Source: an uncultured Microthrixaceae bacterium (GTDB lineage Bacteria; Actinomycetota; Acidimicrobiia; Acidimicrobiales; VFJN01). From it: 64,000 nucleotides of DNA. The position numbers and the translations under genes are program-made. The notes under the pieces were generated by a model. It saw only the letters and a program-made list of their open reading frames with translations, was not told the DNA's origin and did not search any database. Location: contig CAVRKU010000004.1 of assembly GCA_963721695.1 (NCBI GenBank), forward strand, positions 10,927 through 74,926, in the 5' to 3' direction. Below, piece after piece: positions 30,345 through 33,135 of the stretch (its first letter is position 1; each line of letters starts with the position of its first letter).

Positions 30345-30419
30345 TGGCTGCGAGGCCAGGGATCGAACCCGGTTCTCCTGGTTCAGAGCCAGGCGTGGTG
30401 CCAGTTCCACCACCTCGCA
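30345..30419 (-). tRNA. tRNA-Gln (anticodon CUG), CCA encoded
   Basis: Acceptor UGCGAGG/CCUCGCA (U1-A72), G73, D-arm GUGG-AACUGGCA-CCAC, anticodon loop CUCUGAA, T-arm CCGGG-UUCGAUC-CCUGG. Confidence 0.85.
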
Positions 30420-30423
30420 TCGT

Positions 30424-30498
30424 TGGTCTGGACGGGAGGACTCGAACCTCCAACCCCCGGCTCCCGAAGCCGGTGCGCTCCCGTTGCGCCACGTCCAG
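30424..30498 (-). tRNA. tRNA-Pro (anticodon CGG), CCA encoded
   Basis: Acceptor CUGGACG/CGUCCAG (C1-G72), A73, anticodon loop UUCGGGA, T-arm GGAGG-UUCGAGU-CCUCC. Confidence 0.85.
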
Positions 30499-30501
30499 TG
30501 C

Positions 30502-30579
30502 TGGTACTGACGGTCGGAGTCGAACCCGACACTGACGGCGGTCTGAGCGCCGTGCCTCTTCCAGTTGGGCTACGTCAGC
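30502..30579 (-). tRNA. tRNA with Leu anticodon CAG but a class-I (5-nt variable loop) architecture, CCA encoded
   Basis: Acceptor GCUGACG/CGUCAGU (G1-U72), A73, anticodon arm CGGCG-CUCAGAC-CGCCG. The T-loop is 8 nt (GUCGG-GUUCGACU-CCGAC) or contains a 1-nt indel. Confidence 0.6.
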
Positions 30580-30583
30580 GATG

Positions 30584-30658
30584 TGGTGGACCGGGCGGGA
30601 TTCGAACCCGCAACCTTCTCCGTGCAAGGGAGCTGCGCTTCCAGTTGCGCCACGGCCC
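30584..30658 (-). tRNA. tRNA-Ala (anticodon UGC), CCA encoded; irregular acceptor register
   Basis: Anticodon loop CUUGCAC, D-arm GCGC-AACUGGAA-GCGC, T-arm GCGGG-UUCGAAU-CCCGC, A73. G1-C72, G2-C71 and G3-U70 form only if the 5' end is at 30658, which leaves one linker nt short. Confidence 0.65.
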
Positions 30659-30659
30659 G

Positions 30660-30730
30660 TGGTCGCGGGAGCGGGGATCGAACCCGCCGGGCGGGGCTTA
30701 TGAGGCCTCGCTGATCCCAGATCTCCCGCA
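30660..30730 (-). tRNA. tRNA with anticodon CAU (Met, or Ile2/initiator undetermined) and a truncated D-arm, CCA encoded
   Basis: Anticodon loop CUCAUAA, T-arm GCGGG-UUCGAUC-CCCGC, acceptor UGCGGGA/UCCCGCG (U1-G72). Only 13 nt (GAUCUGGGAUCAG) lie between the acceptor and anticodon stems. Confidence 0.55.
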
Positions 30731-30733
30731 GTG

Positions 30734-30810
30734 TGGAGTGACCGACCGGACTCGAACCGGCTTCCTCCGGGGCCACGTCCCGGCGTGTCGTCCACTTCAA
30801 CCTCGGCCAC
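30734..30810 (-). tRNA. tRNA-His-like (anticodon GUG), CCA encoded, with C33
   Basis: Acceptor GUGGCCG, anticodon arm CCGGG-ACGUGGC-CCCGG, T-arm GCCGG-UUCGAGU-CCGGU. A8 replaces U8, position 73 is U, and no G-1 is encoded. Confidence 0.55.
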
Positions 30811-30812
30811 AG

Positions 30813-30884
30813 TCGACGAGGAGGGATTCGAACCCCCGGCATCCTCCGTGTGAGAGAGGCGGTCTGCCACTGACCTACTCGTCG
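30813..30884 (-). tRNA. tRNA-Val (anticodon CAC), no encoded CCA
   Basis: Acceptor CGACGAG/CUCGUCG, U8 A9, D-arm GGUC-AGUGGCA-GACC, anticodon arm CCUCU-CUCACAC-GGAGG, T-arm GGGGG-UUCGAAU-CCCUC. Confidence 0.8.
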
Positions 30885-30892
30885 TGGTGTCG

Positions 30893-30966
30893 TAGGGCGT
30901 CGTGGAGTCGAACCACGTCGATCCCGCGATATCAGCGCGGTGCCTTCACCGTCTGGCTCACGCCCG
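30893..30966 (-). tRNA. tRNA-Ile-like (anticodon GAU), no adjacent CCA
   Basis: Anticodon arm CCGCG-CUGAUAU-CGCGG and T-arm CGUGG-UUCGACU-CCACG are both perfect. Deviations: 6-bp acceptor plus a C1/U72 mismatch, G8, a 3-bp D stem and a 6-nt variable loop. Confidence 0.55.
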
Positions 30967-31107
30967 CTGCGTGTCGTGGTCCCGGGCGTGCTCGAACCTC
31001 CTCCTGCCGGGTTTCGATCGGCCGCTCCACCGTCAGAGCTTCAGCGAGGTTCCGCCTGCGGGGTCGGCTGCGGGGAGAACCCGCTGCGTCTCGGATCGAG
31101 TTGGCGT
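30967..31107 (-). other. Irregular tRNA-derived segment that does not fold into a canonical cloverleaf
   Basis: On the minus-strand RNA: D-arm-like GCUC-UGACGGUG-GAGC; arm GCCGA-UCGAAAC-CCGGC (GAA triplet); UUCGAGC T-loop-like motif without a pairing partner; GCGGG-UUCUC-CCCGC (the neighbouring T-arm minus 2 nt). A possible 12-bp helix pairs 30975-30986 with 31113-31124. Confidence 0.35.
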
Positions 31108-31291: not shown

Positions 31292-31304
31292 TCATCGGCT
31301 GCGC

Positions 31305-32471
31305 TCAGGTGCCCTTGTAGTTCAGGACCTGGTGCAGCGTGTGCAGGACCTCGACGAGGTCGGCCTGGTCGGCCATGACCTGCGTCGATGTCCTTGTAGG
31401 CCGAGGGGATCTCGTCCACCAGCGCGTCGGCCCGCTCGGCGAGCCAGACCTTGCCCTCCATCTGCGTCGGCGAGGTCGGCGGTGGTGAAGAGCTTCTTGG
31501 CCTGGGTGCGGCTGTGCCGGCGGCCGGCGCCGTGCGAGCACGACGTCCAGCTCGCCGCGTTGCCCTTGCCCCGCACGATGTAGCTGCGCGTGCCCATCGA
31601 GCCCGGGATGACGCCGAGGTCGCCGATGTCGGCCTTGATCGCGCCCTTGCGGGTGATCCACAGCTCCTGGCCACCGTGCACCTCACGCTGGGTGAAGTTG
31701 TGGTGGCAGTTGATGCGCTGCGTCTCCCGGCCGAAGCCGAGGAACGCGAACACCTCGCGCATGGCGCTGTCCATCATCTGGTCACGGTTGGCCCGGGCGT
31801 AGTCCTGGGCCCAGAGCATGTCGGCGATGTAGGCCTCGAACTCCGGCGTGCCCTCCAGGAAGTACGCCAGGTCCGGGTCCTCGAGCCGCAGCTCGAGGTC
31901 CTCGGCCAGGCGACGGGCCGTGCCGATGTGCATCTGGGCCAGCTGGTTGCCGATGCCACGGCTGCCCGAGTGGAGCACCACCCACACCCGCCCCCGCTCG
32001 TCGAGGCAGAGCTCGACGAAGTGGTTGCCCGAACCGAGCGTGCCGAACTGCTTGGCCGACCTTGCGCCTGCTGGCTGCCGCCAGCTCGGTGGCCGGCTGG
32101 TGCTCGGCCAGCCAGCGGTCGGCGTCACGGTTGCGTGCGCTGTCGTGACCCTGGCCGACACCGGCCGGGATCGCCCGTTCGATGCGGCCGAGCAGCGGCT
32201 CGAGCGAGTCGGGCAGCTGGTCCTCGGTGACGTCGAGCTCGGCGGCGATCATGCCGCAGCCGATGTCGACGCCGACGGCCGCCGGGATGACGGCGCTCTT
32301 GGTCGGGATCACCGAGCCGACGGTCGCGCCGATGCCGACGTGGGCGTCGGGCATGAGGGCGACGTGGCCCTCCACGATCGGGAGCCGAGCCGTCTTCTCC
32401 GCCTGCCGGATGGTGCCTGGATCGATGTCGCTGGCCCAGGAGATCAGCTTGTCGTTGATGGTGGTGCGCAT
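31305..32471 (-). CDS. rtcB: RNA-splicing ligase RtcB (3'-phosphate/5'-hydroxyl ligase); about 4 apparent frameshifts
   Basis: MPDAHVGIGATVGSV, GVDIGCGM, LGSGNHFVE, LHSGSRGIGN, INCHHNF, IPGSMGTRSYIV and SCSHGAGR, with the C-terminus VLHTLHQVLNYKG in other frames. AAGGAGGG lies 6 nt upstream of the ATG. Confidence 0.9.
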
Positions 32472-32509
32472 GTCACCCCCTCCTTCTTGTTGTGGTGGGT
32501 TGGATGAGG

Positions 32510-32580
32510 CTGCCAGAGGAGGACTCGAACCCCCATCGGCCGGGCAACAACCGGCGGTCCTTCCGTTGGACGATCTGGCA
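32510..32580 (-). tRNA. tRNA-Asn (anticodon GUU), no CCA
   Basis: Acceptor UGCCAGA/UCUGGCA (U1-A72), G73, D-arm GUCC-AACGGAA-GGAC, anticodon arm GCCGG-UUGUUGC-CCGGC, T-arm GGGGG-UUCGAGU-CCUCC. Confidence 0.85.
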
Positions 32581-32581
32581 G

Positions 32582-32657
32582 TGGTACCGCGACGGGGGCT
32601 CGAACCCCGACCTCCGGGTTGAGAACCCGGCGTCCTGACCGCTTGGACGATCGCGGC
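32582..32657 (-). tRNA. tRNA-Glu (anticodon CUC), CCA encoded
   Basis: Anticodon arm CCGGG-UUCUCAA-CCCGG, D-arm GUCC-AAGCGGUCA-GGAC, T-arm CGGGG-UUCGAGC-CCCCG, G1-U72, A73. Confidence 0.8.
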
Positions 32658-32658
32658 A

Positions 32659-32736
32659 TGGCCTCGCCGGCACGACTCGAACGTGCGACCTCCGCCTTCG
32701 GAGGGCGGCGCTCTGCTCCGGCTGAGCTACGGCGAG
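32659..32736 (-). tRNA. tRNA-Arg (anticodon CCG), CCA encoded
   Basis: Acceptor CUCGCCG/CGGCGAG, U8 A9, D-arm GCUC-AGCCGGAGCA-GAGC, anticodon arm CCGCC-CUCCGAA-GGCGG, T-arm GCACG-UUCGAGU-CGUGC, G73. Confidence 0.85.
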
Positions 32737-32737
32737 G

Positions 32738-32813
32738 TGGTGTCGACGGCAGGGGTCGAACCTGCATCCTCTGGGTTCGGAACCCAGTGCCTTCTCCATT
32801 GGGCCACGTCGAC
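32738..32813 (-). tRNA. Second, sequence-unrelated tRNA with anticodon CCG, CCA encoded
   Basis: Acceptor GUCGACG/CGUCGAC, anticodon arm CUGGG-UUCCGAA-CCCAG, T-arm GCAGG-UUCGACC-CCUGC. The 3-bp D stem GCC(C)-AAUGGAGAA-GGC resembles that of the CAG tRNA at 30502. Confidence 0.65.
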
Positions 32814-32814
32814 G

Positions 32815-32892
32815 TGGTGCGCGTCCTGGGTCTCGAACCCAGTCTCGTTCCGGGGTAAGAGCCCGGTGCCCTACCGGTCAGGCGTGGCGCGC
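32815..32892 (-). tRNA. tRNA-Lys-like (anticodon CUU), CCA encoded
   Basis: Anticodon arm CCGGG-CUCUUAC-CCCGG, T-arm CUGGG-UUCGAGA-CCCAG, A73. Deviations: a 7-nt variable loop, A8, and one acceptor mismatch. Confidence 0.6.
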
Positions 32893-32893
32893 G

Positions 32894-32976
32894 TGGTGGG
32901 TCGGGGAGGAATCGAACCCCCTGTGTCGGAAGACGGCTGGTCTACAGCCAGCTGCGCCCCATGGCGCGACCGACCC
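32894..32976 (-). tRNA. tRNA-Tyr (anticodon GUA), class II, CCA encoded
   Basis: Acceptor GGGUCGG/CCGACCC, anticodon arm GCUGG-CUGUAGA-CCAGC, 14-nt variable arm with a GUC/GAC stem, T-arm GGGGG-UUCGAUU-CCUCC, A73. Confidence 0.85.
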
Positions 32977-33065
32977 ATGCCGAGGCCAGGTGGCGCTGGC
33001 CGCGGCGACGATGTCTCTGCAGTTGTCAAGGAGCGACGTCCGGACTGGCGGTCCGGCACGAAGGG
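32977..33065 (-). other. 89-nt structured spacer inside the tRNA array (no T-loop motif)
   Basis: Hairpins on the minus-strand RNA: CCGGAC-CGCCA-GUCCGG and GCCG-C-GGCCAG-CGCCAC-CUGGCC-U-CGGC. Every other spacer in this sub-array is 1 nt. Confidence 0.3.
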
Positions 33066-33135
33066 CAGGCTCGGAAGGTGTCGAACCCCCGGCCGTCGGT
33101 GTTGGAGACCGCGACGCCACCACTGGCTCGAGCCC
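33066..33135 (-). tRNA. tRNA-Trp-like (anticodon CCA) with a reduced D-arm, no 3' CCA encoded
   Basis: Acceptor GGGCUCG/CGAGCCU (G1-U72), G73, anticodon loop CUCCAAC, T-arm GGGGG-UUCGACA-CCUUC. Only 16 nt lie between the acceptor and anticodon stems. Confidence 0.55.

Follow-up and report, generated by a model that had tools for sequence, protein, structure and literature searches.

A 64,000-nucleotide stretch of DNA from an uncultured Microthrixaceae bacterium (VFJN01; assembly GCA_963721695.1, contig CAVRKU010000004.1, positions 10,927-74,926 of the forward strand), referred to below as the window, carries a dense array of tRNA genes on its minus strand, at window positions 30345-33135 (2.79 kb). 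On balance, this array is probably the tRNA part of an accessory cassette for supplying tRNAs and repairing damaged ones, not the self-sufficient survival set that had been proposed in an earlier reading of the same DNA (the original prediction). The decisive context, unseen in that reading, lies between and beside the tRNA genes: a gene for an RNA ligase, RtcB; a Y RNA of the YrlA type; and rsr, which encodes an ortholog of the Ro60 protein. The cassette spans some 4.8 kb, in the order leader and Trp-like RNA, tRNA block, rtcB, tRNA block, YrlA-type Y RNA, rsr.

Twelve minus-strand tRNA genes, which form two blocks (A and B; Table 1), were called alike by ARAGORN at its default settings and by the Rfam tRNA model at its gathering score; ARAGORN was then run in relaxed mode, and Rfam more sensitively. 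The Rfam scores of the twelve are 40-66 bits (E 5e-5 to 5e-12), far beyond chance. Spacers within the blocks are 1-7 nt, and ARAGORN finds no tRNA elsewhere in the window. Three weaker elements resemble tRNAs for His, Met and Trp. The His-GUG element scores 32.3 bits in the sensitive Rfam run and has C at position 33; the Met-CAU element, with a 3-bp D-arm, is called by ARAGORN in relaxed mode only and has a weak Rfam match (30663-30731); the Trp-CCA element is called Trp by relaxed ARAGORN, and its orthologs in two related loci (L030 and L006) are called Trp at default settings. All three are real, if non-canonical, elements and are conserved in relatives: the Trp-like element is 90-97% identical pairwise to those of L030 and L006; the His-like element is 92-97% identical among the window, L030 and L006, and 76-82% identical to that of L033; and the Met-like element is kept in the alignment of relatives. 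Sixteen anticodons had been read originally, and these 15 stand, three of them on weak yet conserved elements. The other, a doubtful CCC (Gly), does not: the element concerned is the ortholog of a tRNA-Thr(CGU), with a 6-nt anticodon loop.

The 1.5-kb stretch that separates blocks A and B contains rtcB. The gene is open throughout once three single extra bases are skipped (at ~32057, ~31465 and ~31383), and its product covers positions 1-102 and 120-369 of the Pfam profile. Its translation shows the Cys, His and GMP-His motifs (VDIGCGM, HSGSRGIG, NCHHN and SCSHGAGR), and frameshift-aware alignment, with three "+1" events, gives 89% identity to the RtcB of L001. RtcB joins 2',3'-cyclic-phosphate and 5'-OH ends. 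Beyond block A, rsr is open throughout after seven single extra bases are skipped and is 79% identical over 527 amino acids to the intact Ro protein of L030, which matches both TROVE and the Ro60 vWA domain.

Between block A and rsr, ~170 nt from the start of the latter, is the YrlA-type RNA, which adjoins tRNA-Gln without overlapping it. Its Rfam match (42.2 bits, E 1e-7) is below the gathering score of 69. The predicted fold has outer and inner closing stems around a permuted tRNA-like module (T-arm, acceptor-like hairpin, D-arm). RNAalifold on four copies gives 33 conserved pairs, three of them compensatory, all in the acceptor-like hairpin, and the four-copy consensus retains every part of the RNA. 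A Ro60/Y RNA module is recognized by a Ro60 ortholog with a YrlA-like RNA no more than 4 kb away that is not a mere overlap with tandem tRNAs, which can mimic YrlA (Chen et al., 2014, PMC4201824). Here the Ro60 ortholog has its TROVE domain, and the caution about mimicry is probably answered by a consensus fold that is kept, with compensatory pairs, in four to five cassettes; in addition, the T-arm and D-arm are linked by a self-complementary hairpin, which is not expected of tandem tRNAs. A second small structured RNA, designated Y-B, has the layout and motifs (UGCG.A / GGGUUCCUUC / GGU(U)CC) of the closing stem of the YrlA-like RNA. RNAalifold on four cassettes predicts 20 pairs for it, six with compensatory changes, and it has counterparts in L001 (3647-3747), L006 (4983-5088) and L033 (841-927). 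Y-B is thus a candidate for another Y RNA, a counterpart of YrlB.

Table 1. Features of the tRNA array, its cassette and the surrounding window. Positions are those of the window unless a locus is named.
Feature	Position	Strand	Remarks
Leader inverted repeat	33145-33166	-	GCACGCA-N8-TGCGTGC; upstream of Trp-like element
Trp-CCA-like element	33064-33135	-	opens the cassette; Rfam 22.2 bits (match 33066-33135)
tRNA block B	32508-32976	-	Tyr-GUA, Lys-CUU, Arg-CCG (two), Glu-CUC, Asn-GUU; spacers 1 nt
rtcB	31305-32471	-	3'-phosphate/5'-OH RNA ligase; Pfam RtcB PF01139, E 1e-27 and 4e-73
Perfect 15-bp GC-rich hairpin	31256-31291	-	directly 3' of rtcB stop codon
Degenerate tRNA-Thr(CGU) ortholog	31177-31250	-	6-nt anticodon loop; Rfam 35.6 bits (31178-31250); ARAGORN "tRNA-?(cc)"
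Y-B, second small structured RNA	31106-31176	-	two-part stem with internal loop; between Thr-CGU and Phe
Irregular segment	30976-31105	-	partial duplicate of the former Thr tRNA and broken tRNA-Phe(GAA)
tRNA block A, solid calls	30345-30966	-	Gln-CUG, Pro-CGG, Leu-CAG, Ala-UGC, Val-CAC, Ile-GAU
tRNA block A, His-GUG-like	30737-30810	-	weak member
tRNA block A, Met-CAU-like	30661-30731	-	weak member
Short tRNA-Leu	30502-30579	-	78 nt; also L030 11841-11917, L033 1892-1967, and in L014 and L068
YrlA-type Y RNA	30195-30320	-	Rfam RF02553 match 30203-30309; directly after tRNA-Gln
rsr (Ro60 ortholog, TROVE domain)	28443-30036	-	Pfam TROVE PF05731, 2e-13 on window fragment
Frame-shift sites (examples)	adk 9380; map 10041; rpoA 12724; glmS 17537 and 17987; groEL 27332 and 28164		

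As they stand in the window, RtcB and Ro are each dispersed over all three frames, and both were considered as pseudogenes. This was rejected: all ten events (seven in Ro, three in RtcB) are single extra bases, shifts in this direction occur throughout the window, essential genes are split in the same way, and both genes are otherwise well conserved. Viterbi frame segmentation finds ~31 frame shifts across the window, almost all of them "+1". They divide adk mid-domain (one frame holds Pfam profile positions 1-122, the next frame 122-149), likewise map (1-138, then 139-190) and the insert domain of rpoA (2-67, then 68-119), and break groEL twice. Since the same defect splits rpoA, adk and map, which are essential single-copy genes, what might pass for gene decay in RtcB and Ro is technical insertion (assembly) error. 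With systematic insertion errors, any "pseudogene" call in the window is unsafe, and some of the small defects of its tRNAs may likewise be artefacts. Two of the RtcB insertions produce the motif GACGCAG, but this motif is found at only one of the 31 shift sites, and a motif-linked error was set aside as coincidence. Plain tblastn was unusable for counting frame changes, because out-of-frame similarity in high-GC sequence blurs the high-scoring segment pairs. The RtcB gene of L030, a short-read metagenome-assembled genome (MAG), has one frame shift of its own (10001-11159, 1159 nt); its Ro60 is intact.

Relatives were sought with the reconstructed RtcB as query in a collection of one genome per species, from which 80 loci were compared, and in a metagenome scan (loci L161, L163, L169, L171, L172, L174 and L181); a further 80 viral RtcB loci formed a viral comparison set. 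The closest RtcB relatives, 77-88% identical, are in MAGs of Acidimicrobiia, Acidimicrobiales and Microthrixaceae. An array in the same tRNA order, split by RtcB, is found in L001, L006, L030, L033 and all seven of the metagenome loci. Ro60 is directly downstream of the array in L030, L014, L171 and L181, and in five cassettes (the window, L001, L171, L169 and L181) the last tRNA, Gln, is succeeded by a YrlA-like RNA. The array is absent from many other, equally close RtcB loci (L003, L005, L008, L011 and L012; RtcB 77-86% identical). The flanking genes are different in every genome: PTS, DUF72 and DUF3048 in L030, SDR and cellulase in L014, amidase and Fic in L006, DUF222-HNH in L033. Of the window's own neighbours, the CBS, Dus, Maf, GroEL, GuaB, TsaD and NUDIX proteins were found at none of the 80 genome-collection loci. 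The cassette is therefore a self-contained unit at variable chromosomal sites. Its tRNA content differs from one cassette to another by whole-gene deletions. When the isotypes of 12 cassettes are pooled, all 20 amino acids are represented; the wobble position has G in 61 of the tRNAs, C in 57, and A and U in nine each. The array of L030 reaches 20 tRNA genes. The idea of roughly one tRNA per amino acid holds for the family; the window copy has none for six of them.

Pooled tRNA identity, with the odd Trp-like and His-like elements in the pool, is 89-92% among the window, L001, L006 and L030, and ~85% to L033. Among the same genomes, fourfold-degenerate sites in RtcB are 51-69% identical, near the expectation from base composition. 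With the tRNAs ~90% identical while synonymous sites are near saturation, the array tRNAs have been under purifying selection. That they are not duplicated housekeeping tRNAs, as originally suggested, is borne out by a comparison of the kind then called for: array Gly-GCC, Cys-GCA, Val-GAC and Arg-ACG share only ~55-73% identity with stand-alone tRNAs of matching anticodon, taken from other Actinomycetota and not from the window's own genome, and so did not arise by recent copying of ordinary tRNAs. Within each stand-alone set for Gly-GCC, Cys-GCA and Val-GAC, identity is 78-100%.

The array tRNAs have several unusual features. U33 is near-universal in tRNAs; C33 replaces it in 18 of 78 and 25 of 105 cassette tRNAs (~23%), versus 15 of 263 in viral arrays (~6%). 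Every Gly-GCC has it, and it is frequent in Thr, His and Glu; the cassette loci concerned are L001, L006, L030, L033, L014 and L161-L184. All 12 solid tRNAs of the window have U33, including Glu, which has C33 in L001, L006 and L030. A long variable arm is a feature of every normal bacterial tRNA-Leu; every cassette tRNA-Leu is 74-78 nt long and lacks it, with discriminator A73 and the CCA end kept. The window's Ala-UGC keeps G3:U70, and most array genes encode CCA. The Arg-CCG gene at 32738-32813 aligns as an ortholog with the Arg-ACG genes of relatives, its anticodon stem-loop having changed from CCGGU-CUACGAA-ACCGG to CUGGG-UUCCGAA-CCCAG. This is an anticodon switch in which two pairs of the anticodon stem have changed in a compensatory way.

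The predominance of C34 noted in the original prediction is confirmed, at eight of the 12 window tRNAs and seven of the eight amino acids for which C34 is possible. Its proposed fit to GC-rich codons, checked against 17.5 thousand codons of the window (cassette excluded), is partial. In the Glu, Gln and Lys boxes 94-99% of codons end in G, which makes the C34 species the major decoders there. The four-codon boxes, Ala, Leu, Arg and Val among them, are instead led by codons ending in C (GCC 0.60, CTC 0.59, CGC 0.53, GTC 0.52, ACC 0.60, GGC 0.63). The commonest Ala, Leu, Arg and Val codons are unreadable by the window's array, which has no decoder for GCC, CTC, CCC, CGC or GTC. Altogether the 12 solid tRNAs read 37% of the window's codons, or 42% once His, Met and Trp are included; the union of Acidimicrobiia cassettes reads 79%. 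GC3 is ~0.95, in agreement with the bias of cassette anticodons to G34 and C34. The window set can only supplement housekeeping tRNAs, not replace them: with 58-63% of codons unread and amino acids missing, other tRNA genes must exist elsewhere in the genome.

If the cassette functions as a unit, it would sustain translation when host tRNAs are cut or depleted, the trigger being either anticodon-loop ribonucleases (from toxin-antitoxin systems, bacteriocins or phage defence) or general translational stress. Its genes would presumably be co-transcribed and stress-induced. It would supply extra, divergent tRNAs, matched to GC-rich codons through G34 and C34; the odd ones among them would have to be aminoacylated, and C33 and other odd anticodon loops may let them escape nucleases. 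RtcB would then reseal tRNA halves with 2',3'-cyclic-phosphate and 5'-OH ends, and Ro60 and the Y RNAs would deal with misfolded or irreparable RNA. The whole probably moves horizontally among chromosomal sites of Acidimicrobiia. [quoted passage not shown] A bolder version, in which this is an undescribed cellular "translation rescue" unit that combines a near-complete nuclease-evading tRNA set (one tRNA for each amino acid, with such alterations as C33 in about a quarter of them and a Leu that lacks the long variable arm) with RtcB, Ro60 and two Y-type RNAs, is conceivable but rather doubtful. If it were true, the cassette would be the cellular equivalent of the phage anti-defence tRNA strategy, and would offer a natural set of working C33 tRNAs.

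A number of observations weigh against an accessory supply and repair function. Several array members break near-universal tRNA rules (C33, the Leu without a long arm, the Met-like element with its short D-arm, a Cys with an aberrant T-loop), which casts doubt on whether all of them decode. The tRNA-like Y RNA is not universal in these cassettes, since Rfam gives no YrlA match between array and Ro in L030 or L014. The genes identified around the cassette include none for an anticodon nuclease, and a sigma-70 scan found no promoter consensus there. The redundancy of the array with a housekeeping tRNA set is something we infer. Finally, with six amino acids absent and the Thr and Phe elements degenerate, the cassette may be in the process of being lost from this genome.

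The last point leads to an unlikely alternative, that the horizontally acquired cassette is cargo eroding neutrally here, its remaining tRNAs without present function. Asp, Cys, Gly, Phe, Ser and Thr have no tRNA in the window array, as the original prediction had found for all of these but Gly. In comparison with relatives, Asp-GUC, Thr-GGU, a type-II Ser-CGA, Cys-GCA and Gly-GCC have been cleanly deleted. The Thr-CGU element, which aligns to tRNA-Thr(CGU) of four relatives, has its shortened anticodon loop, and the "GAA loop" previously noticed in the irregular segment does exist, as part of a broken tRNA-Phe(GAA) ortholog (~30976-31050) with its 5' acceptor strand gone, C33, and a mismatch in the anticodon stem. 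Next to it is a window-specific partial duplicate of the former Thr tRNA (~31062-31105; an 18-nt repeat at 31077-31094 and 31195-31212). The Rfam scores of the window's Leu and Ala are 6-9 bits under those of their orthologs, and private indels in the tRNA blocks, counted to tell error from decay in a sequence with insertion errors, are somewhat more numerous in the window (9) than in relatives (2-4). On the favored explanation too, the window copy is a reduced cassette, with 12 good tRNAs, three conserved non-canonical ones and two or three degenerate ones; such a trimmed copy, with its deletions, degenerate genes and limited reach among codons, is not a deliberate minimal survival set. Neutral decay is nevertheless difficult to reconcile with 12 solid tRNAs that match their orthologs so closely when synonymous sites are near saturation, or with RtcB and Ro that are conserved at full length, with catalytic motifs intact and only "+1" defects; some of the tRNA defects may also be sequence errors. 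About as improbable is a non-decoding role, in which the array RNAs would be decoys that soak up nucleases, or substrates or regulators of RtcB and Ro60, beside the tRNA-like Y RNA. The many non-canonical members (C33, class-I-like Leu, short D-arms, odd T-loops) would fit, as would the presence among the tRNAs of a tRNA mimic (YrlA) and of another Y-like RNA, and a sponge role or competitive nuclease inhibition has been proposed for L-array tRNAs and YrlA (PMC8421152, PMC7790460). Against it are the G34/C34 bias, as host codons require, a union of 20 amino acids represented about once each, the retention of identity elements (Ala G3:U70) and encoded CCA ends, and the Arg-ACG to Arg-CCG switch with its compensatory stem changes; a pure decoy would need none of these features.

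Two further explanations are very improbable. The array could be the organism's principal tRNA cluster: it sits in the core chromosome between groEL and guaB, and the window has no further tRNA. The absent amino acids, and the absent decoders for C-ending codons, rule this out for practical purposes; moreover, relatives with RtcB 77-86% identical have no array at all, whole-gene deletions vary the tRNA content of the others, and the sequences are far from those of stand-alone actinobacterial tRNAs with the same anticodons. It could also be a prophage remnant, a leftover phage tRNA cluster with its RtcB. Ten of the 80 viral RtcB loci do carry large tRNA arrays beside RtcB, and there are short nucleotide matches between phage RtcB genes and the window. 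The viral RtcB relatives, however, are at most 68% identical, versus 77-89% for the cellular ones, and viral arrays are one-sided and loosely spaced, with a Ro homolog at none of the 80 loci. No phage, integrase or plasmid genes were found near the cassette in the window, L030, L014, L006 or L033, and no direct repeats flank it. A phage or plasmid origin was also rejected by megablast of 20-44 kb against phage and plasmid collections, which gave only short RtcB matches and GroEL matches.

The accessory cassette favored here shares properties with several known systems. As quoted in an excerpt of PMC5966550, the 2016 definition of a tRNA array unit calls for at least 20 tRNA genes in a region, at no less than two per kb. 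On that wording the window falls short in number, with 12 tRNAs at default settings or 15 with the His-, Met- and Trp-like elements, but not in density (4.3-5.4 genes per kb over 2.79 kb, including the 1.17-kb rtcB), and L030 qualifies on both counts. The array units of Mycobacterium, plasmids and mycobacteriophages (PMC5966550, PMC12803027, PMC10264068) are, like the cassette, actinobacterial, with ~20 isotypes, little identity to the host's non-arrayed tRNAs, isotypes lost or duplicated, and anticodon-loop variants that have been discussed as anti-nuclease or anti-defence. They differ in having 20-39 genes in prophage or plasmid contexts, where the cassette is chromosomal with no mobile-element genes nearby, in having another isotype order, and in that no linkage to RtcB, a ligase or Ro60 is reported for them. 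L-arrays, such as the trn operon of Anabaena sp. PCC 7120 (PMC8421152), resemble the cassette in their dense, same-strand tRNAs (here in one orientation and, within blocks, spaced closely enough for co-transcription), which are supernumerary in L-arrays and probably so here, their non-periodic isotype order, their patchy distribution suggestive of horizontal gene transfer (here, an array present or absent among close RtcB loci), a neighbourhood rich in RNA-processing genes including rtcB, and a proposed role in surviving translational stress. In the cassette, unlike L-arrays, rtcB is inside the array, a YrlA-type RNA and Ro60 come at the end of the unit, the host belongs to the Acidimicrobiia, and nearly all anticodons begin with G34 or C34; there is no HNH endonuclease upstream in the window, and the window copy has fewer than 20 genes.

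The Salmonella Typhimurium rsr-yrlBA-rtcBA operon (PMC4201824, PMC7790460) likewise has a Ro60 ortholog and RtcB on one strand, with a functional link to tRNA damage; it also has a tRNA-like YrlA RNA, to which the YrlA-type RNA here probably corresponds, and another Y RNA, for which Y-B is a possible counterpart. The order is reversed in the cassette, rtcB being first and rsr last; 12 to more than 20 tRNA genes are embedded in it; and its YrlA match is under the Rfam gathering score. The cassette has the RtcB ligase of an Rtc operon, complete with catalytic motifs, but is not a canonical one, because neither the cyclase RtcA nor RtcR, a divergently transcribed sigma-54 activator, is among the neighbours scanned within ~8 kb (GroEL, CBS, Dus, Maf, NUDIX, NMO, GuaB). 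Phage tRNA clusters with RNA ligases, and occasionally with TROVE (jumbo phages, PMC7824862; L089, L102, L110 and L131, among others, here), also place tRNA supply beside RtcB repair, as a counter to tRNA-cleaving effectors; unlike these, the cassette is cellular and chromosomal, with short-spaced arrays on both sides of rtcB, and with Ro60 and YrlA. Each component is thus already known: array units and L-arrays, RtcB beside arrays in cyanobacteria and phages, and Ro60-YrlA beside RtcB. New, in the literature searched, is their combination in a unit that recurs in Acidimicrobiia chromosomes, where tRNA blocks flank rtcB, a YrlA-type RNA and rsr close the series, and many of the tRNAs have C33; no description of tRNA arrays within a Ro-Y RNA-RtcB operon was found there.

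In this cassette, accessory tRNA arrays, whose role is debated, and the Ro60/Y RNA/RtcB operon, whose substrates are unclear, physically meet. Their interleaving argues for one shared task, the maintenance of a usable tRNA pool under attack or stress, and at ~5 kb the cassette is a compact, testable unit. A C33 proportion of ~23%, in tRNAs that are under purifying selection, bears both on anticodon-nuclease recognition and on the flexibility of the U-turn rule. For annotation, such arrays in the core chromosome should not be taken for the main tRNA locus, and the frame breaks of this window should be treated as assembly errors.

Outside the cassette, the whole window is core actinobacterial chromosome. 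On one side of the cassette is glmM-glmS-alr-tsaE-tsaB-rimI-tsaD-groES-groEL, and on the other CBS-dus-maf, NUDIX, NMO and guaB; farther core genes in the window include secY-adk-map-rpsM-rpsK-rpoA. Genes for a CBS-pair protein, dihydrouridine synthase (Dus) and Maf (33434-35699) are directly upstream of the cassette and on the same strand, and two of the three act on tRNA or modified nucleotides. Their adjacency may be chance; dus and maf are not cassette members, being absent at all 80 genome-collection loci.

The core of the leader inverted repeat, CGCAC..CGTCATGCG, is common to the window, L030, L006 and L002, and may be an operator or processing site. The leader features at 33000-33166 (minus strand), the inverted repeat included, are shared with L030, L006 and L001; 3' of the Trp-like element they comprise a CCGGAC...GUCCGG hairpin and then a conserved TTGACAACTGCAGAGACATCGTCG stretch, which may also be regulatory or processing sites. 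A hairpin similar to that following rtcB is present in L006 and L030. The only terminator-like site in a scan for DNA signals is part of the Y RNA stem. The left edge of the cassette is probably marked by a bidirectional terminator, a 23-nt imperfect hairpin between the convergent ends of groEL and rsr (28388-28438).

Variations were also seen at related RtcB loci. In L033, a DUF3291 gene on the opposite strand (1378-1860, minus) is inserted between tRNA-Ala and tRNA-Leu, and the DUF222-HNH endonuclease gene is ~1 kb downstream of the array. In other Actinomycetota, RtcB is found inside an ordinary Gly-GCC/Cys-GCA/Val-GAC cluster (L034 3082-5527, L043 6127-8392). A lone Arg-ACG is just upstream of RtcB in L015 (9799-9871) and L025 (2657-2730), and a lone Trp-like element in L007 (9886-9957). 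These single tRNAs and small clusters beside RtcB could be seeds of arrays, or their remnants.

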